DNA of 64,000 nucleotides, taken from positions 192,001 through 256,000 of the forward strand of contig JBHLMN010000003.1 of the NCBI GenBank assembly GCA_048938105.1. Reading direction: 5' to 3'. Below, piece after piece: positions 5,961 through 53,044 of the stretch (position 1 is its first letter; each line of letters starts with the position of its first letter). Under the pieces are notes generated by a model that worked only from the letters and a program-made list of their open reading frames with translations, ran no database searches and was not told where the DNA came from. A program made the position numbers and the translations under genes. This DNA comes from Promethearchaeota archaeon. Its GTDB lineage: Archaea > Asgardarchaeota > Heimdallarchaeia > Hodarchaeales > Hodarchaeaceae.

Positions 5961-6228
5961 AATATTGTCCCTTCTTAGAAAGAGTGATCAAAACTCATTA
6001 TAATAATGTTTTACTACTTTAATATGTTAAAAAACGTAGACTTAAGGTGATTATTTAGGTTATAATCCATATATTTCTTGAAGAAACAAATACTGTTCAC
6101 ATATCTATAGCTATTTTTCTGAATTAAGAACAGAAAAGTCCATGATAAAGTGTTTAACAGTCTCAAGATAAGATTAATAAGATAGTCGTAATAATTCTCG
6201 AGGTAAGTTCTTATAGCTCTTTTTTGTT

Positions 6229-7293
6229 ATGGACAATCAAATCCACCTTTTATTGGAGGATTTTAAAATTTCCCTATTGAAGAGACTCTTCCGACGTTAT
6301 TCGAAAAAGGAGGAAGAACCCTCTACTCCACTTAAAGAAGAATTGATAACATTTATTGGAGAAGCATATGCAGGAAAAACCACTATTTTACATCGTTTGA
6401 GAACAGGGGAATTCTATAGTAGTTTAGTAAGAACTATGGGATTAAATGTTGACTCTTTTGAGTATCGTAATGTCAAGTTCCAAGCATTTGACTTGGGTGG
6501 CCAAGAATCATTCCACATGATTTGGGGAGATTACTTACGTCTTTCTAATGCTGTAGTTTTTGTCGTAGATTGCTCCAATCCAAACAGTTTTAGGTCAAGT
6601 AAAGCAGCTCTTTATAATGCAATGCCTAGCATTCCCTCAAATGCTGTCCTTCTTATTGTAGCAAATAAAGCTGATATATCAGGTGTTGATCCCTATGTTA
6701 CGCTTCTCAAACACTTTGACCTTTATGATATTCAACAAAAAGGCGAATTTCGTGCCATTAATATATTCCACATGTCAGCAAAGACGGGAATGAACTTTTA
6801 TCAGGCCTTCGATTGGTTGATTGAAACATTAACAGGAGAAATTATTCTTCCTAATATTAATATTCACAACATTTGTATTTATAAAACAGATTCTGGTTTG
6901 CTAGTTGGAAGCAGTATAACTAATCAAGGTCTAACGCAATATGATCCTGCATTATTAACAAGTATGTTCTCAGCAGTAAATACTTTTGCCGAAGCATCCA
7001 TGGGAGCTGGAGTAAGAGAAATACTCATGAAGCGAAGTAAGTCAGCAGGAGCAGATGAGATCTCAGATAATTATAAACTAGTTCGGGTTGAGGAAACAGA
7101 CTTTTCTGTGATCCTCATTGTTAACGAGTCGGACTCCATGAGGAAAAGTATAAAGATAGGTAAAGATCTATTAGTGTGGACGAGATTAAAGATCCCAGAA
7201 CCAGAGAACCTCATTGAGATGATCGAGGGGGAAGAAATTAAAACCTATTTAACTATGAAATTCCCAGAAGACATTGCAATGGTTAGTGCTTAA
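6229..7293 (+). CDS. Arf-like small GTPase fused to C-terminal longin/roadblock-like domain
   Basis: G1 GEAYAGKT, switch I RTMGLNV, G3 FDLGGQ, G4 NKAD, G5 SAK. C-terminal 'IYKTDSGLLV...DPALLTSMFSAVNTFAE...YKLVRVE..FSVILIV'. True start may be about 13 codons downstream. Confidence 0.88.
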   Translation: MDNQIHLLLEDFKISLLKRLFRRYSKKEEEPSTPLKEELITFIGEAYAGKTTILHRLRTGEFYSSLVRTMGLNVDSFEYRNVKFQAFDLGGQESFHMIWGDYLRLSNAVVFVVDCSNPNSFRSSKAALYNAMPSIPSNAVLLIVANKADISGVDPYVTLLKHFDLYDIQQKGEFRAINIFHMSAKTGMNFYQAFDWLIETLTGEIILPNINIHNICIYKTDSGLLVGSSITNQGLTQYDPALLTSMFSAVNTFAEASMGAGVREILMKRSKSAGADEISDNYKLVRVEETDFSVILIVNESDSMRKSIKIGKDLLVWTRLKIPEPENLIEMIEGEEIKTYLTMKFPEDIAMVSA

Positions 7294-41786: not shown

Positions 41787-42797
41787 TCAATCTGCTAATC
41801 TTGCTCGTCGTGATCCTTCATCGAACGAAATAATACCCATATCTCGGAAGTGGTGAATTATTTGCTGGACTGTATATGTTGCAATCCCAGTCATTGTTGC
41901 AAGATCATCAACAGTGACCTGTTCTAGACTCATTAAATGACTTAAAATTCTCCCAGACTCGCTTTCACTCAAAAATGTCTTTATGGCCTTTGCTGTTCCT
42001 AAGGATTGCTTTGAATCTTCCGCCATTGTTTGAATTTGAGTCTTTGCTCTATCAAGTTCGTAAGTTTTCATTTCATTTTCTTCTTTCAGACGTTTGAGTT
42101 CGAATTTTAGCTCTTCAGCTTCAATTTTCCTTTCTTGCAATTCCTCAATCAGATTATTCTTTTCTTTTAATTCTGATTCCAGTTGCTCAAGTTGAGATGT
42201 AGTTTTTTCTACTTCTTTACCTTTCTTCTCTATTTCTTCCTGCAGGGTGCCGATACGCTGTTGAGCTAAATTATCCCTTTCAAGAGCTAATTTTTCTTTT
42301 TCTTTTAATTGATTTACCAATTCTTCATATTTTTGGGTCATAATCTGTTCTTTTTCAACAGCAATATTTCTTCCTTGACGAAGCTCCTCTAATACAGTGA
42401 CATATTTTTCTCGGAACTCCTCTATCTGTTCATTGACAGCAAAAGACCAATTACTTGAATTTTGATCAAGGTTTTCAAGTCGTGTACTGAGATCTAATAT
42501 TTGATTATTTAGTTCTAACCCTAAAGTCTCCAGGGAACCCCGAACCTCATCAAGTGTCGTTTTAAACTCTTTAGAAGCCTGAGTTCGGATCTCTACGCTT
42601 CTGTTTTCTAATGTTTGAGATAGCTCGCTTTGACGGAGCGCGGATCCCTCCAGGTGTTTTTCAATCGCTGCAATCCTTGACGCCAACTCTTGAGAAACTT
42701 CATTTATTCGGGTTTCAGTATTGTTTAGCTTTTTGGTTAACTCTTCTTGTAATAATTCTAGCTCCGAAGGTTTTTTCTTTCTAAACATGTAAAACAC
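41787..42797 (-). CDS. Long coiled-coil protein with C-terminal winged-helix domain
   Basis: About 260 aa of E/K/L/Q heptad-rich helix, then 'RILSHL...VTVDDLATMTGIATYTVQQIIHHFRDMGIISFD'. Confidence 0.75.
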   Translation of the reverse strand: MFYMFRKKKPSELELLQEELTKKLNNTETRINEVSQELASRIAAIEKHLEGSALRQSELSQTLENRSVEIRTQASKEFKTTLDEVRGSLETLGLELNNQILDLSTRLENLDQNSSNWSFAVNEQIEEFREKYVTVLEELRQGRNIAVEKEQIMTQKYEELVNQLKEKEKLALERDNLAQQRIGTLQEEIEKKGKEVEKTTSQLEQLESELKEKNNLIEELQERKIEAEELKFELKRLKEENEMKTYELDRAKTQIQTMAEDSKQSLGTAKAIKTFLSESESGRILSHLMSLEQVTVDDLATMTGIATYTVQQIIHHFRDMGIISFDEGSRRARLAD

Positions 42798-43210: not shown

Positions 43211-43639
43211 TTATGCTCTAGAAACCACTTTGAAAGAAATATATTTCATACCTTCAATTGTACGAAGTTTCTTCATCAATATACGAATATTATTAACAGA
43301 ATCACTAATGATCAAATTCTCTAAACATTCTCCTTTTTTTAAATGATAATGTGTTGAAAAGACTACATTCGAATGATGTTGTACTTCTAAGAACTTTTGA
43401 ATTGTTTTTTGGTCATAATGGTCATAAACAACTGAAATTGTAACTGTAATGTCAGTATCACTCGCAGTAATGTTATTAAGAACCTCCTCTGATTCAAAAA
43501 AGCTTTGAAGTGCATCTCTTATCATTTGCGAGGTATTTTGATACCCAAATTCTTTTACTTTAGTGTTAATAAGATTTTTAAAACCCTGCTCACAAGAAAA
43601 AGTAATAGTCTCACGATTACCCTTCTGGTTCATCTTCAA
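43211..43639 (-). CDS. nikR: Nickel-responsive regulator NikR
   Basis: RHH 'ITFS...GYQNTSQMIRDAL', 'VVYDH', 'VQH', 'STHYHL...CLE'; last gene of the ECF metal operon. Confidence 0.88.
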   Translation of the reverse strand: MKMNQKGNRETITFSCEQGFKNLINTKVKEFGYQNTSQMIRDALQSFFESEEVLNNITASDTDITVTISVVYDHYDQKTIQKFLEVQHHSNVVFSTHYHLKKGECLENLIISDSVNNIRILMKKLRTIEGMKYISFKVVSRA

Positions 43640-43677
43640 TCCTACCTATTATTACTTCTTTTTTGTTTTGATTCTTA

Positions 43678-44433
43678 TTACGAGAGATTATCAGTTTTTA
43701 TAAACTCTTGCTCCAGAAAATCATTAAAAGATGAAAAATCTCCTTTGATTTCCCCTTGTTTCATTAATATAATTCTATCAGCAATTCTCATAATATCAAA
43801 ATCATGGGAAACTACAATAATTGTCTTATTCTTAGATATTGAGTGAATAATATCAAGCATACGAGGTTTGGTCCAGGGATCGATACCTGCGGTAGGTTCA
43901 TCTAGCACAATGACATTGGGTTGCATTGCTAAGATACCAGCAAAAGCAACCTTCTTCTTTTCACCAAAGGAAAGATTAAATGTAATTCTCTCTCTCAAAT
44001 GAGTAATTTGAACTTCTTCTAAAGCAGAATTGACTCGTTTCTCAATTTCTTCTTGGCTTAGTTGCATGTTTCTTGGCCCAAATGAAATATCATCACTTAC
44101 TTTAGGAAAGAATATCTGTTCGTCAGGATTTTCAAAAACTAATCCAATAAGTTTTTGAATATCTCTTTTGTTCTTCTTTGTCACAAGTTTGCCAAAAACC
44201 CGTACTTGCCCATGTTTAGGAACAATTAATCCATTAAAGTGTTTCATAAGAGTCGTTTTACCAGATCCATTCGGGCCAGCAATGACTGTAAGATTATTTC
44301 TTTGGAAATTAACGGAAATATTCTTTAATACCAGCTTCTGTTTCTGTAAATATTTAAATGATAGATCTTTTACCTCAAGTATGGTTTCATCAGATTTACT
44401 AGAATTATTCTGGTCAGTAGCTAATGTACTCAT
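43678..44433 (-). CDS. cbiO: ECF Co/Ni transporter ATPase CbiO/NikO
   Basis: GPNGSGKT, 'LVFENPDEQIF', 'LSFGEKKK', 'LDEPTAG', 'SHD'. ATG at 44433 overlaps the cbiQ stop. Confidence 0.9.
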   Translation of the reverse strand: MSTLATDQNNSSKSDETILEVKDLSFKYLQKQKLVLKNISVNFQRNNLTVIAGPNGSGKTTLMKHFNGLIVPKHGQVRVFGKLVTKKNKRDIQKLIGLVFENPDEQIFFPKVSDDISFGPRNMQLSQEEIEKRVNSALEEVQITHLRERITFNLSFGEKKKVAFAGILAMQPNVIVLDEPTAGIDPWTKPRMLDIIHSISKNKTIIVVSHDFDIMRIADRIILMKQGEIKGDFSSFNDFLEQEFIKTDNLS

Positions 44434-45245
44434 ATGAATTCCCTCAAAAAAGTAAATGGTGACATTTGTCCTATACTCATTGCTATAATTACTAGAATTA
44501 ATATTATAATCAAAAAAATAACTCCACCTAAACTCCATGGTTGATGGGGATGTATTAATCTGCCAGAAAATCCTCGGGCTGAGAGAGTGGCAGACACATA
44601 TTCTGCCCGTTTAAAGGATCGTGCTAATAAACCTGCAATAATATTACTGATAATCTTCATTGAGCTAAAATTCATTCGAAGCCTTTCTCCGTAGAGACGA
44701 TTCGACCGAGCCTCAAGAATTCTTTCTAATTCTTCCTGCATAAGGGAAAAAAAACGATAGGTAAAGAAAGTTAAGCTTGTTAATAAATGGGGCATTTGTA
44801 GATCATTTAATCCATAAATAATTTCAAAAAAAGACTCTTCTGAATTAATGAGCATCAAAACAAATAGAACGATTAAGAGACTACGTAATCCAGAAAATAT
44901 CATGAAAGAAAAATTATCATGAATTGTAGAATAGAATAAGCTTCTATAGATAATTGGCGAACGACTAAATGATAGAAACGAAATTAACGCTAATGAAACA
45001 ATAATCGGGAGTGTTGCTAGACTTTGTTTGAAAAATAATAAACGAGGACGAAGAAGAATGAAAGAAAGAATGAAAATCAGTATAAACCATGATAGTTGAT
45101 TCAGATCTACTATTAATGAACATGCAATAATGATAAAAAAAGTTGCGATGATTTTGCACCGTACATCAATTGGATATGCCAATTGATGGGTAGAGTGTTG
45201 TTCGTTTGTATAGGATTCTCTCAAATTCAATCCTTCAATACACAA
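44430..45245 (-). CDS. cbiQ: ECF transmembrane T component CbiQ/NikQ
   Basis: 'IDVRCKII', 'FTYRF...EELERI.EARSNR', 'RSFKRAE.V...LSARGF'. Confidence 0.88.
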   Translation of the reverse strand: MCIEGLNLRESYTNEQHSTHQLAYPIDVRCKIIATFFIIIACSLIVDLNQLSWFILIFILSFILLRPRLLFFKQSLATLPIIVSLALISFLSFSRSPIIYRSLFYSTIHDNFSFMIFSGLRSLLIVLFVLMLINSEESFFEIIYGLNDLQMPHLLTSLTFFTYRFFSLMQEELERILEARSNRLYGERLRMNFSSMKIISNIIAGLLARSFKRAEYVSATLSARGFSGRLIHPHQPWSLGGVIFLIIILILVIIAMSIGQMSPFTFLREFI

Positions 45246-45266
45246 AAAGAAGTAAAAAAACTAATA

Positions 45267-45590
45267 TTAATATTCAGAGCTGATTTCTTTTGAATGACGT
45301 TGTTTAAGGATATAGTATGGAATGATAAAAATACAAAAGACAATAATAACTCCGATTAAACCAGAAACTATTGTAGAAAGAAATTCATTTCCAATAATTT
45401 GTTGAAGCACAGAACCATAAGCCCCATAATCAGTTAGAATCCCAAGATCAAATGAATTACCATCAGGGGCATTGTTCTGTTCTGCAGCACTTTCGAGACC
45501 ATCTGGATTAGGATCCGCAAAAGGGGCTAAGAGTAAAAGTAATACAAGAATAGCAATAACACCAATGATATATTTCTGCTTGACATCCAT
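45267..45590 (-). CDS. PDGLE-domain accessory component (NikN/CbiN-like)
   Basis: 'FADPNPDGLE' between two TM helices. Confidence 0.88.
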   Translation of the reverse strand: MDVKQKYIIGVIAILVLLLLLAPFADPNPDGLESAAEQNNAPDGNSFDLGILTDYGAYGSVLQQIIGNEFLSTIVSGLIGVIIVFCIFIIPYYILKQRHSKEISSEY

Positions 45591-45595
45591 TTTTA

Positions 45596-46282
45596 TTACC
45601 TCTGAACTTCTACTAGCTGAGAAGGTTGTCTTTGTATACCAAGGAAAATATCCATTTCAATGGAATGGAAGTACAAAACAATCATACTAGTGATCAAACC
45701 TTCACCTATGCCTATTAACACATGATAGAAAACGATTGTTGGCAATGCCACAGATATGGGAATGGCTGCGGGGTAATTTATTAGAGGAATACCAAGTTCT
45801 AGAGCTGCGAAAAAAGAAGCAACAACAACAGAGAGAAAAGCTCCACAGAATATACCACCATAATAACGAAATTTGGCATCCTCAGGATTTTCCTTATCCA
45901 TGAAAATACGAAGAACTGAATATCCTGTAAAAACTCCAACAATCCCCATGTTAAAGATATTGGGGCCTAAAGCAATGATTCCACCATCAGCAAAAAGTAA
46001 TGCCTGAATCATGAGAACAACAGTAATTACTAAAACAGCAGCCCAAGGTCCTACAATAGCTGCAGCTAGAGTGCCACCTAGTAGATGGCCAGAAGTACCT
46101 CCCAAAATCGGAAAGTTTAACATTTGAGCTGCAAAAATCGTTCCCCCTATTACAGACATGTAAGCGATTCTCGTTTCATCAATATCACGTAGTTTACGTG
46201 AGGAGACAATTATAACAGCAATTGTTATAAGCCAAGTAACTATTATGAATGCAGGATCAACCCAACCATCTGGAATATGCAT
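45596..46282 (-). CDS. cbiM: ECF Co/Ni S component CbiM/NikM
   Basis: Metal-binding N-terminus MHIPDG (so start at 46282), 'FAAQMLNFP..GGTSGHLLG', 'QALLFADGG', 'IGIGEG'. Confidence 0.93.
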   Translation of the reverse strand: MHIPDGWVDPAFIIVTWLITIAVIIVSSRKLRDIDETRIAYMSVIGGTIFAAQMLNFPILGGTSGHLLGGTLAAAIVGPWAAVLVITVVLMIQALLFADGGIIALGPNIFNMGIVGVFTGYSVLRIFMDKENPEDAKFRYYGGIFCGAFLSVVVASFFAALELGIPLINYPAAIPISVALPTIVFYHVLIGIGEGLITSMIVLYFHSIEMDIFLGIQRQPSQLVEVQR

Positions 46283-46385
46283 TGTCATTACACCTGAAGA
46301 ATTTGTAATCCATATTAGTTAATTTGAGATATAAAGTGAAGAGATTTTACTCAACTCAAGAAAAAAGATTACCTATATATATGTC

Positions 46386-48257: not shown

Positions 48258-49208
48258 CTAATTCTTCCGTTTGCGAGTGGTTGTCTTTTTATATAATTCT
48301 GCTAACTCATCTAATTCAAAATCATCTAGTAAATCTTTTTCACTTTTATCAAGACCAGGTTTTGTTTTTTCTTTATCTAACAGTGCATGTAATTCTTCCT
48401 GAAGATTACCTTTAACGAGTTCGGAACTTTGCAGTTTTTCACGCCCTTTTTGAGTAATCTGCCACACTTGTAAGTTTTGTACGTACTCAATCTCACCAAC
48501 AGACACTAATTTGCGGAGGATTGCCATAATTTTATCTCTATCATACTCGACTTGCCCTGTACGGGAGATGATTTCTAGTTGGCCAAGTATCGATAAAAGT
48601 GGAAGGCCGTTTTCATGATCATCTAGCATATCAAGAATGTAAATGGTGAGAAACCTTGAAAACCGGTCTGGTAATGGATGTTCATCTTCTGTTAAGCGTT
48701 TATGTATCCAGATAAGGACTTGTGCAAAATACTGTGGCTCCTTCGCGGTTGTGGAGAAAATCCGATGTGGTCGATCAAGTCTATTAAGGATGTCTAACTT
48801 TTCGATAATGGTCGAAGGATGCACTCGAGCAATATCTTTTTTGTGAAAAAGAACAGCCAAAGGTTTACCCAATGATTGAGGATGATTTAGGATTTTCATG
48901 AATTCTGTTTCTGCATCCATAAAGCTACTCTCATCACTTCCATCAATGACAAATATGATAGCTTCCACATGATCAATATAATTCGAAACAAACCTTCTTA
49001 CCTCCTTTCTCCCCCCAACTTCAGTTATATTAAATGTAATGTTCTTATCAATTGTGATTTCAGAAATGGTCTGGGCTGTAGAAGGTGCTCCTGCTATAAA
49101 AAGGCCTTTTTGAAAAGAATTAATGAGAGTAGACTTACCACTTTTTTCTAAACCATAAAGGAGGACTCGAATAACTGTTGTCAGTTTTTTTCCCCTTTTT
49201 CCAGGCAA
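48258..49208 (-). CDS. Divergent Arf-like GTPase fused to C-terminal winged-helix domain
   Basis: G1 GLEKSGKS, 'PSTA', G3 variant EVGGR, 'IIFVIDGSD', G4 variant HKKD, G5 TTAK; wHTH 'YILDML...ILRKLVSVGEIE...WQITQKGREKL'. Confidence 0.82.
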   Translation of the reverse strand: MPGKRGKKLTTVIRVLLYGLEKSGKSTLINSFQKGLFIAGAPSTAQTISEITIDKNITFNITEVGGRKEVRRFVSNYIDHVEAIIFVIDGSDESSFMDAETEFMKILNHPQSLGKPLAVLFHKKDIARVHPSTIIEKLDILNRLDRPHRIFSTTAKEPQYFAQVLIWIHKRLTEDEHPLPDRFSRFLTIYILDMLDDHENGLPLLSILGQLEIISRTGQVEYDRDKIMAILRKLVSVGEIEYVQNLQVWQITQKGREKLQSSELVKGNLQEELHALLDKEKTKPGLDKSEKDLLDDFELDELAELYKKTTTRKRKN

Positions 49209-49570: not shown

Positions 49571-52500
49571 ATGAAATTCAATAAACATAAGATATCCAAA
49601 TATTCACTCTGGATAATATTAATTCTAACAATTGCTCACTACAAATCTACTGGTAGTTTTGAATTATCAGACAGAATAATCGAAAAATATGGAATTACAT
49701 CTCATTCATATGATGTGATCTCATCAACTCCATATAATAGAGAGAAAGAATCCTTAAGTGCTGTAAAAACAAATACTATAGAAATATCTAATCCAATAAC
49801 CTACTCAGATACTATAAATTTAGATCAATTAGCAGATTGTCTTGCCATTGACCCAAAAACTGGTGATTATTACCTTTATTATCCTAGATCATATTGTGTA
49901 AAAACTTATGATAAGGATTTCAATTTCATTGGAACAATAGGAACTGAAGGAGAAGAGGGAACAGATAACGATCACTTTGGTAATTACGTGACAAATACTC
50001 CATTTGGAGGCCTTAAAGTAAGTAATGATGGCCGTTTATTCGTGAGTGATCCTCAGAATCAACGAGTTCAAGTATTCAATACAACTGACCGGTCTTATCT
50101 GACAACTATTAACTGCTCAACTTATATGCCTTATGGGGAATGCCCATTTGGACTCGATATTGGGATTGATGGTTCACTTTATGTAGCTATTTACAACGGA
50201 CCAGTGCTGATTTTTGACAAGAACTTAACCTTCATTGATTCTATCTTCACGGCAAATAATATGCATACCACAGCTATTGATACTAAAGGCCGAATCTACT
50301 CTGGTCACGGTGATACATCTTATCATGAGATCCCTGTTTACAACATAACGACAAAAGCAATGCTGTATGGAATAACTTCCGTTGACGGAACAGATTTTTA
50401 TAGACCAGTGATTGTACGAACTGATTACCGTGATAATCTCTATGTTGTTTGTGATTTTGAACACAGAGTTCAGATATTAAACAAAACTCATGGCCTTATT
50501 GGAACTATAGGCATACCAAACGAAAGCGGGAATGATAACGATCATCTTAATTGTCCGTTGGATGTGGCTTTCTACAAAGGACAAGTATACGTTCTCGATC
50601 ATAATAATTATCGTATTCAAATATTCGCTATTTTCCAGACTCAAAAATCAATTAATATCAATAGTAACACCGATTTTAGGCAGCAGGCGGCAGGGAAAGC
50701 GTGGTTTGGCAATGGTACAGTTTCCAATCCATATTTAATTGAAGGATACATTATAACAGCAATAAATTCCAAACACTTGGTTTCTATCAGCAATACAGAC
50801 GTCTATTTTCAAATTCGTGAATGCTTTTTCAATAATAAATATATATACGATAGTAGAGGTATTTCATTTGCTAATGTGACAAATTCTCTAATTACTGACA
50901 ATACAATTTACAATGCTGCATCGGACGCTATATGGCTGGAGCAAGGATCTACTCATAATAATATTACCAATAATGTGATAACATATGTTGGATCTTATAG
51001 ATCTGGAGGAGATGCAATTGGCATCTTACAATCCTCCAATAATAATATCTTTAACAATACAATTAACAAATACTCTGATGGAATCTATTTAGGCTATACC
51101 TCACTTAATCATATTTACAAGAATAAAATCGATGATTGCGATAGAGGTATAAGGGTTCATGCTGGAACTAATAATAATTCAATTTTGTATAATCAGGTGA
51201 GTCATTGTGAACAATGGGCAGTAGAGATGAATCCTTCTGCTTATGGAAATATTGTGATGTACAATAATTTCATTGATAACTTATTCATAGAATCTCAAGC
51301 TAGTGATTATAATGGAGATAATATCTTTAATTATAACTATTGGGATGATTGGACCAATCCTGACGAGAATTTTAACTATATCGTTGATCTCCCTTATCAC
51401 ATTTATGGCCCTGGAAATAACTCAGACCTCCACCCTCGAACCACTCCTGATTTCTTTTCTTTTATTGATCATGATCCTATTTACATTGATGATAATGAAG
51501 ATTTTGTTACATTAGGTTTTGAAGGTAAAGGGACTAAGGATAATCCCTACATCATTGAAGGATGTTCCATTAATAGTTCAGAAACTTTAATAGAAATTTG
51601 GCACACTAATGTTCATTTTAAAATTCAAAAAAACTGGCTAAATGGAATAACCAAATTCTTTAATGGAATATATCTTTATAATGTTACCCATGGAACCATT
51701 GTCAATAATATCATACTCAATTGTAGTGCAGGTATTTATCAGGAATATTCCAAGGAAAATAATTTAATAAACAATCACATCATCAATTCTAATACTGGAA
51801 TGGTACATACTTCAACTTCAGCTAATCTAATTGAAGGTAATAGAGTTCATGATTGCACTCAAACTGGAATTTATTTATTCAACACAAATTATACTATTAT
51901 TTCGTATAATGCTATATTCAATAATAGTAATGCAGGGATTCATCTAGCCTCATGTAATAACAATACTATGTTTAATAATACCTTTAATGACAACGATGAC
52001 TCTGGAGTTGAACTTGATTCAGCCAATAGCAATAATATTTTTAGCAATATTATTCAAAATGACGGTATTGGCATGATTCTACGATCTAGCAATAAAAATT
52101 ACTTTTCCAAAAATATTATCTCCAGGAGTCTTTATTCTGGCATTGATGTGGGAACCTGTGCCAGTAATACGTTTTTAAATAATACACTCTTTGATAACAA
52201 TGATAATGGGATTTTATTAGTAAATTCCATAAATAACAACTTAATTAACAATTCGATATTTCAAAATGATCGAGGAATACATCTCCATAACATTAACAAT
52301 CAAGGAAATATCATTTCAGGTAATATTATCAAATATCACAATAGCTCTGGGATCATATTGGATTACCAAGCTGAAAATAATCAAATAACAGGGAACTATT
52401 TTATTGGAAATAATCAAGGTGGAAGACAAGCAGAAGACAATGGTGTTAATAATATCTTTTCATACAATTTCTGGGATGATTGGATTACTCCCGATGAAAA

Positions 52501-53044
52501 TGCTGATAGGATAGTCGATAATCCATATCCAATCTCTGGTAATGCGGGAAATTTCGATAATTTTCCACTTGTTTTTGGTTTAGGTCACTACATCTCGCAA
52601 CTTAATATAATCTCTCCCAAAGGAGGTGAAAAATTCCTACAAGGAGATATAATTTCGATTCAATGGTCCACCGCACTCTGTTCACATGGCCATTCAATTA
52701 CTTACTCTATATACTATTCGCGTAATTCTGGTGAAACTTGGATTATACTAGCCTCAGAAGTGGTTGGAACTGAATTTTCATGGGATACGTATAATGTTGA
52801 CCCAGGGACTCAGTTTCTTATCATGGTGGTCGCAGAATGCTCTGAAGGAAAAACAATAACAGAAGCTATTGGTCAAACCTTTGAAATTTATAGTGACACT
52901 GGAATAACCACTACTACTAGTACCAGTCAAAGAGAAACTGATATTCCTTCAATCCCAGTTCCAGTTAATGTCCCAGCAATCATCATGGGATTAAGTCTAT
53001 TAGCTATCTTCAGAATCATTTTTCACAGCAAAAGTAAGGAATAA
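49571..53044 (+). CDS. Secreted surface protein: NHL beta-propeller, two right-handed beta-helix (NosD/CASH) modules, Ig-like domain, TM anchor
   Basis: NHL 'LFVSDPQNQRVQVF', 'VYVLDHNNYRIQIF'; duplicated 'G.GT..NPY.IEG ... N.WDDW..PDEN...IVD.PY'; Asn-rich coils; Thr linker plus TM. Confidence 0.88.
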   Translation: MKFNKHKISKYSLWIILILTIAHYKSTGSFELSDRIIEKYGITSHSYDVISSTPYNREKESLSAVKTNTIEISNPITYSDTINLDQLADCLAIDPKTGDYYLYYPRSYCVKTYDKDFNFIGTIGTEGEEGTDNDHFGNYVTNTPFGGLKVSNDGRLFVSDPQNQRVQVFNTTDRSYLTTINCSTYMPYGECPFGLDIGIDGSLYVAIYNGPVLIFDKNLTFIDSIFTANNMHTTAIDTKGRIYSGHGDTSYHEIPVYNITTKAMLYGITSVDGTDFYRPVIVRTDYRDNLYVVCDFEHRVQILNKTHGLIGTIGIPNESGNDNDHLNCPLDVAFYKGQVYVLDHNNYRIQIFAIFQTQKSININSNTDFRQQAAGKAWFGNGTVSNPYLIEGYIITAINSKHLVSISNTDVYFQIRECFFNNKYIYDSRGISFANVTNSLITDNTIYNAASDAIWLEQGSTHNNITNNVITYVGSYRSGGDAIGILQSSNNNIFNNTINKYSDGIYLGYTSLNHIYKNKIDDCDRGIRVHAGTNNNSILYNQVSHCEQWAVEMNPSAYGNIVMYNNFIDNLFIESQASDYNGDNIFNYNYWDDWTNPDENFNYIVDLPYHIYGPGNNSDLHPRTTPDFFSFIDHDPIYIDDNEDFVTLGFEGKGTKDNPYIIEGCSINSSETLIEIWHTNVHFKIQKNWLNGITKFFNGIYLYNVTHGTIVNNIILNCSAGIYQEYSKENNLINNHIINSNTGMVHTSTSANLIEGNRVHDCTQTGIYLFNTNYTIISYNAIFNNSNAGIHLASCNNNTMFNNTFNDNDDSGVELDSANSNNIFSNIIQNDGIGMILRSSNKNYFSKNIISRSLYSGIDVGTCASNTFLNNTLFDNNDNGILLVNSINNNLINNSIFQNDRGIHLHNINNQGNIISGNIIKYHNSSGIILDYQAENNQITGNYFIGNNQGGRQAEDNGVNNIFSYNFWDDWITPDENADRIVDNPYPISGNAGNFDNFPLVFGLGHYISQLNIISPKGGEKFLQGDIISIQWSTALCSHGHSITYSIYYSRNSGETWIILASEVVGTEFSWDTYNVDPGTQFLIMVVAECSEGKTITEAIGQTFEIYSDTGITTTTSTSQRETDIPSIPVPVNVPAIIMGLSLLAIFRIIFHSKSKE

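Follow-up and report, generated by a model that had tools for sequence, protein, structure and literature searches.

Does an archaeal gene that joins an Arf-like GTPase to a winged helix encode a genuine protein, and if so, would the GTPase control a domain that reads nucleic acid or one that docks onto proteins? This question is raised by an open frame of 316 codons on the minus strand (48258-49208), found by reading the open reading frames of a 64,000-nucleotide stretch from a Hodarchaeales archaeon, hereafter referred to as the window. An initial annotation, made from the letters alone, had proposed either a nucleotide-sensing one-component DNA-binding regulator or an ESCRT-like adaptor.

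Gene start, family and distribution

All residues of the fusion protein are numbered here from the TTG at 49208, although the probable start is the CTG at 49184, which defines a coding sequence of 308 aa (48258-49184, minus strand). This ninth codon is the most likely start judging from the orthologous loci, where it is CTG, TTG or ATG, where in-frame stops lie 0-3 codons ahead of it in several cases and where a purine-rich tract of the GGGGA/GAGG type stands just 5' of it. The window gene carries AGGGGA 6 nt ahead of CTG 49184, the alignment positions 1-7 are empty in 51-53 of 65 rows, and in two loci (L032 and L034) the stretch from the stop to G1 is free of any ATG, GTG or TTG. The 5' leader (49185-49208, minus strand) with its Shine-Dalgarno-like AGGGGA (49196-49191) is in-frame, and its translation is probably not protein. 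Because the orthologue stops and the Shine-Dalgarno-like tract precede codon 9, the basic N-terminus (GKRGKK) that had been part of the proposed architecture lies upstream of the probable start and is most likely a translated ribosome-binding site. In its own right it is of note that several genomes of the genus seem to use CTG as a genuine start codon for this gene (window 49182-49184; likewise L032 and L034). A scan for bacterial-type promoters and terminators gave hits at chance level only.

A homologue search returned 73 proteins, mostly full length, and the C-terminal part was found in one copy each in 18 of the 20 other genomes of the window's Hodarchaeales-type genus. Strong matches were limited to that one genus in a set of 399 genomes of the phylum, and none of the few weak matches inspected outside it was a GTPase fusion. 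The search across Asgard archaea that had been suggested as a check of the architecture yielded a fusion kept in this genus and not found in the other families of this set. The fusion gene is intact, conserved and under purifying selection: in four pairs, dN/dS was 0.08-0.15 across the G domain and 0.08-0.20 across the winged helix. HMMER with the C-terminal profile against 1.84 billion representatives recovered the family, a 251-aa short form and one weak repeat-like match only. ESM Atlas features corresponded to generic Arf clusters for the whole protein and to none for the C-terminal part; a 337-aa Heimdall Arf-like cluster (TM 0.62, residues 9-274) may be the family's own, as far as the structural match goes.

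Named homologue records are mostly Hodarchaeota or Heimdallarchaeota MAGs, B3_Heim (PWI47075.1) among them. Since B3_Heim belongs to the set of 62 genomes used by Vargova et al. (bioRxiv 10.1101/2024.02.28.582541), who place it under Hodarchaeales, the G domain of its orthologue is probably already catalogued in their Table S3; the available part of that table holds no match to it. ArfR GTPases and multi-domain Asgard Arfs with extra domains (longin etc.) are already published (PMC11914678). In the literature, a description of an Arf-winged helix fusion was not found, and the related hits concern ESCRT and other systems. Taken together, the Arf-winged helix fusion is real, conserved, undescribed and restricted to one lineage. 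Its significance is limited by this confinement, by the general precedent of multi-domain Asgard Arfs and by the lack of a known eukaryotic descendant.

The Arf-type G domain

Pfam Arf matched residues 11-171 with an E value of 2.4e-26 and 92.7 bits, compared with only 30.2 bits for Gtr1_RagA, and among natural PDB sequences, Arl3 and Arf proteins match best. A full-length AlphaFold2 model (pLDDT 81, pTM 0.76) was used as Foldseek query and the best 50 matches were all Arf, Arl or ArfR proteins, including Arl8, Arl3, Arf1 and HodArfR1/GerdArfR1, in agreement with the Arf-like identity assigned at the outset. The pTM value suggests that the two domains of the model are packed in a defined way. 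In a maximum-likelihood tree of 55 rows, from which ArfL/MglA-like and long-branch rows were excluded and in whose set ArfL and MglA references were not identified, the fusion family forms a clade (100/100) on a long stem inside the group of ArfR and eukaryotic Arf (94/88). An ArfR origin of the G domain is favoured by similarity and predicted fold; it is not proven by the tree, because an AU test did not reject a grouping with Rag GTPases (p 0.27).

Compared with the Asgard ArfR proteins HodArfR1 (8OUK) and GerdArfR1 (8OUM), the family shares the Arf fold (TM by target 0.85 to 8OUK), the GL[DE] P-loop, the xxGG of G3 and an interswitch of Arf length. It differs in lacking the amphipathic helix, in the G3 replacements of Asp by Glu and Gln by Arg, in the loss of Gly50, Phe/Met51, Trp66 and Trp78, and in the additional C-terminal winged helix and charged tail. 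The family has a median of 10 residues ahead of the P-loop, compared with 23 in ArfR and eukaryotic Arf, and beta1 starts at once; with about 10 residues there is therefore no N-terminal amphipathic helix. HodArfR1 deprived of its helix is cytosolic (bioRxiv 2024.02.28.582541). What makes the family of interest is an Arf switch that seems to be redeployed off the membrane and joined to a winged helix.

The G domain (residues 11-175; 48684-49178, minus strand, as are all features of this gene) carries the marks of the Ras superfamily in G1 (GxxxxGK[ST]), the G2 threonine, the G4 Lys and Asp, G5 and the overall fold. Its P-loop GLEKSGKS (49131-49154) is the intact G1 that had been reported, with an invariant Glu21 in place of the Asp of Arf and ArfR. 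Thr44 (49077-49079), likely the G2 threonine, is invariant and lies 19 residues ahead of the G3 acid, as in Arf, and alignment places a G5 of the SAK type at TTAK (48741-48752). A DxxG with catalytic Gln is missing. Instead, G3 reads EVGGR (49008-49022), confirming the replacement of the catalytic Gln by Arg, and takes the form ExGGR in long members and ExGG[SD] in the short form. With Glu63 invariant (65/65), Arg67 present in 61 of 65 orthologues and dN/dS values of 0.08-0.20 across both domains, these substitutions are conserved features and not the unconserved decay considered beforehand. A natural Glu at the Ras-12 position together with Arg at the Ras-61 position resembles activating mutations. 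For G4, the reading HKKD (48834-48845) held, with Lys invariant and Asp in 63/65; the notion of a rewired motif did not, because a third of the orthologues keep Asn at the first position (His 42, Asn 21, Ser 2 of 65). HKxD is also found in Rag-type GTPases of the same genome and in a Gln-containing ArfR of another family.

The Arf-type signature, defined as Leu at G1 position 2, an acid at position 3 and Gly at G3 position 3 (PMC11914678), is represented by Leu20, Glu21 (Asp in Arf) and Gly65. Arf Gly50, Phe51, Trp66 and Trp78, invariant in 67 eukaryotic Arfs, are replaced in every family member, so that of the aromatic effector triad (Phe51, Trp66, Tyr81) only the Tyr81 position remains mostly aromatic. 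Near-invariant are the P-loop Lys and Ser/Thr, Thr44, the G3 glycines, the G4 Lys and Asp and the G5 Ala, and conservation is also unusually high on the alpha4-beta6 surface (0.80; residues 129-152). Because of the set of kept and changed residues, the protein has probably kept nucleotide binding, given up the recruitment of Arf-type effectors and become slow in GTP hydrolysis, which makes the impaired hydrolysis proposed from the Gln loss a fair inference. Several atypical eukaryotic Arf-likes, namely ARL15, ARL13B, ARL16 and ARL9/10, are likewise without the catalytic Gln and show an altered aromatic effector patch. ARL15, which carries Ala at the Gln position, binds GTP weakly (Kd 20 uM) and hydrolyses it slowly, with a turnover about 10-fold below that of hRAS (PMC10348743). 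By analogy, the fusion probably works biochemically like such Gln-less Arf-likes. All of these eukaryotic proteins differ from it in being lipid-anchored or devoid of a winged helix, and orthology is unsupported, as they are absent from the 55-row tree.

Further Arf-like proteins with C-terminal extensions were encountered during this survey. In one family of the class (f7; L100-L112), all 12 of 12 genomes encode two ArfR-like proteins of ~330-350 aa that have the canonical DxGGQ and end in a fused Cys-rich domain without Pfam match and with possible zinc binding. In the tree they branch closest to the Arf-winged helix clade (80/93); one of them has a G4 of HKSD and adjoins a polB-like gene. 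In addition, four Arf-like GTPases of the window's genome (window 6217-7290, plus strand; G000 C27:267309-268310, C39:3788-4735 and C52:289687-290631) bear C-terminal tails of ~140 aa that read as longin-like; all keep DxxG[QH], two of them with His at the Gln position, like Sar1.

The winged helix and a stand-alone relative

Residues 182-261 (48426-48665) folded confidently on their own (pLDDT about 90), and structural matches to PadR and to the cullin WHB domain bear out the winged helix that had been recognized at the C-terminus; the tail was not modelled confidently. A C-terminal roadblock/longin domain of the RagGtr type is thus not what follows the G domain. With the winged helix as query, Foldseek listed PadR/MarR proteins at E values above 0.001. 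VIA-align gave Z scores of 12.0 for PadR TA0346, 11.7 for AphA, 10.9-11.0 for cullin WHB and 10.2 for APC2 WHB, and since these scores nearly tie, DNA binders and protein dockers cannot be told apart by the fold.

The description as PadR/MarR-like stands for the fold and falls for the sequence. Comparison with PadR/AphA proteins (TA0346 3ELK, AphA 1YG2, B. subtilis PadR) gave a best Z of 12.0, to 3ELK, at an rmsd of 3.1 A over 95 residues, and an xTxxG turn after the wing is followed by the C-terminal helix. In contrast, none of 63 members matched Pfam PadR (PF03551) or MarR, a genome scan with PF03551 returned 12 other loci without the fusion gene, and the PadR recognition-helix motif ([ST]xG[TS]xYP-like) is absent. 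The wing is shorter and only weakly basic: the window protein has no K/R there (family median 1), against 2-6 in the 12 PadR matches of the same genome. The sequence relative is another family. The cullin/APC2 WHB domain, an example of a protein-docking winged helix, superimposes with Z scores of 10.2-11.0 and an rmsd of 1.7-2.0 A over 70-73 residues, so that the WHB fold is present. It differs in sequence (8-23% identity), and the family shows neither cullin repeats nor a cullin body nor the conserved Nedd8 acceptor Lys in helix 1; ANAPC2 Pfam matched weakly in 5 of 63 members. The proposed ESCRT-like adaptor received no specific support: Vps22/25/36 (ESCRT-II) are not among the best 50 structural matches, an absence from a list that is not an exclusion, the ESCRT-II winged-helix Pfam had no match in 63 members, each with a single winged helix, and no ESCRT genes were found near the fusion gene.

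Within the domain, helix 3 is basic (median net +3, with R224, K226, R232 and K233 conserved), while the net charge as a whole is about neutral. Helix 2 and the following turn, which include the invariant Gln210, form the most conserved segment of the entire protein (0.81) and are mostly hydrophobic.

When the winged-helix profile of the family was run against the same genome, the only notable other match was a stand-alone gene of 81-85 aa (E 2e-4; G000 C56:74287-74541, corresponding to L006:3288-3542, minus strand; orthologues in L159-L200). Across the 399 genomes, the fused-domain profile detected similar genes in two other families, and a widened profile picked up a single such gene in the majority of Heimdallarchaeia genomes (a match in 59 of 82, the fusion counted). 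Matches were obtained in 163/399 genomes, nearly always one per genome; outside Heimdallarchaeia they were weaker (E 1e-5 to 1e-9), and those of the weaker-match proteins that were read have 105-160 aa with an N-terminal extension. This stand-alone family was absent from the HMMER result over 1.84 billion representatives and surfaced only in the per-genome searches. Conversely, a profile of stand-alone proteins only returned the fusion as second match in the window's genome (E 4.5e-9), well ahead of every PadR, and hhalign of the fused versus the stand-alone family gave 97.3%, E 2.8e-11, over 79 columns. By these profile comparisons, the stand-alone protein, and not a PadR regulator, is the reciprocal closest relative of the fused winged helix, which appears to be derived from it and is its probable paralogue. 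The simplest history would be that the stand-alone gene was duplicated and the copy then joined to an ArfR G domain in a single lineage.

The two share the long helix 2, the conserved Gln and the short wing. They differ in that the stand-alone protein has no GTPase and is mostly acidic (80-160 aa; 17 of 22 net negative), including its helix 3, which is basic in the fusion. Family searches brought no known family above the cut-off; matches to the chromatin proteins Sso10a/HTH_45 are weak, and ribosomal protein eS10, considered as a relative, was rejected, its match of only 37 residues from helix 3 to the wing (E 4e-4) being treated as generic. The stand-alone genes sit in lineage-specific housekeeping contexts. 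In several Loki-type loci, such a gene stands beside a Hef/FANCM-like helicase, with a Ras-like GTPase or an actin gene within a few kb (names read from sequence). The fusion thereby points to an overlooked single-copy winged-helix protein across Asgard archaea.

The charged tail and the possible mechanism

The winged helix is followed by an acidic helix (48288-48338; consensus EFDLDELAELY) and a basic C-terminal end (48261-48290; net about +5 across the family), as had been noted for the ending TTRKRKN. The acidic helix is conserved, and at least four K/R occur among the last 10 residues in 52 of 63 long forms; the tail has low confidence (pLDDT 50-60) in both models. A short form of 251 aa (P0073-P0075, P0078; L046:4833-5588 and L079:1494-2249, near thermosome, Rpb6 and S17e genes) stops directly behind the wing and is without the tail, the basic end and the dimer helix. 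It carries Ser or Asp for Arg67 and is also missing Arg71. As the acidic tail and both arginines of the basic switch II are present together in the long form and absent together in the short form, this single evolutionary contrast, with the tail unplaced in the model, hints that the role of Arg67 may lie in docking the tail and not in acting on GTP.

We tentatively favour, at a little less than an even chance, a soluble, slowly hydrolysing, GTP-sensing switch derived from ArfR that gates a protein-docking winged helix. The switch would bind GTP and hydrolyse it slowly, like ARL15 or the Ras Q61R mutant, and because of this slow hydrolysis it would track nucleotide occupancy instead of cycling on membranes. 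The conserved, largely hydrophobic helix 2-turn surface with its shared Gln would dock the same partner as the stand-alone protein. More speculatively, the acidic tail helix could latch onto the basic switch II, helix 3 or both, and the nucleotide bound would decide whether this latch is free or engaged. The low K/R content of the wing, the missing PadR motif, the acidic stand-alone relative, the conserved helix 2-turn, a WHB score within about 1 Z of PadR and the lack of a conserved target operon all argue for protein docking. Against it count the PadR regulators as best predicted fold matches as well as the basic helix 3 and basic C-terminal end, which also fit nucleic-acid binding, and the latch is without model support given the low confidence of the tail in both models. 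These same features feed the main competitor, a GTP-gated DNA (or RNA) regulator in which nucleic acid is bound through helix 3 and the basic end, the G domain turns this binding on or off and the acidic helix mimics DNA to autoinhibit the protein. Its best fold matches are PadR/AphA (Z 11.4-12.0), its helix 3 is conserved and basic, unlike that of the stand-alone family, the basic end is found in 52/63, and the stand-alone family has its weak Sso10a/HTH_45 matches. We nevertheless consider it doubtful, though still a serious contender: the PadR recognition motif is absent, the wing short and K/R-poor, the net charge about neutral, 63 members lack a PadR/MarR Pfam match, the stand-alone family is acidic, an adjacent conserved regulon was not found, and the short form dispenses with the basic end and the dimer helix. 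Equally doubtful is its more specific version, a one-component GTP-gated transcription or chromatin factor made of an ArfR and a winged-helix duplicate given a basic recognition helix and an autoinhibitory tail. If true, GTP-gated DNA or RNA binding would mean that Hodarchaeales couple a eukaryote-type Arf switch directly to the binding of nucleic acid.

The remaining explanations concern the G domain itself. Arg67 might be used as in the DTAGR motif, which takes part in SRP GTPase activation, with a composite site formed by two copies held together through the winged helix or the tail. Such a dimerisation-activated GTPase would account for the strong constraint on Arg67 (61/65) and the conservation of the alpha4-beta6 surface (129-152; 0.80), and DTAGR is the conserved motif III of FtsY (PMC2572998). 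The short form, however, keeps the fold without the Arg, and SRP GTPases belong to a different class. As an Arg at the catalytic Gln position moreover blocks hydrolysis in Ras, we regard this arrangement as unlikely. A nucleotide-free pseudo-GTPase, whose G domain would serve as nothing but a folded platform, would fit the changed G1 and G3 acids, the lost Gln, the diverged switch I and interswitch and the long stem branch; it is very improbable, because a protein that binds no nucleotide would hardly be expected to keep P-loop Lys/Ser, Thr44, G3 Gly, G4 Lys/Asp and G5 Ala near-invariant. A decayed or chance fusion without function, for which the unusual motifs only could be cited, has practically no probability left, being refuted by the single copy in 18 of 20 related genomes, the intact frames and dN/dS of 0.08-0.20. 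Since the favoured switch is a small soluble protein that can be produced in E. coli, both its hydrolysis and the choice between DNA and protein as target are directly testable.

No operon or neighbour is conserved across the loci; an M20 peptidase gene lies convergent to the fusion gene in only 6 of 19. The 1157-aa product of the divergent gene (window 49571-53044, plus strand) is a secreted or surface protein with NHL and beta-helix (NosD-like) repeats and is not kept as a neighbour. The region 43211-46288 (minus strand) holds a NikR-like regulator with the operon of an ECF-type Ni/Co transporter, whose ATPase, T component and CbiN/CbiM-like parts are named from sequence. Farther along, a gene at 41787-42797 (minus strand) encodes a long coiled coil of 336 aa with a C-terminal MarR/TrmB-like winged helix, and a homologue of it occurs near the Arf-winged helix gene in 4 of 19 loci.
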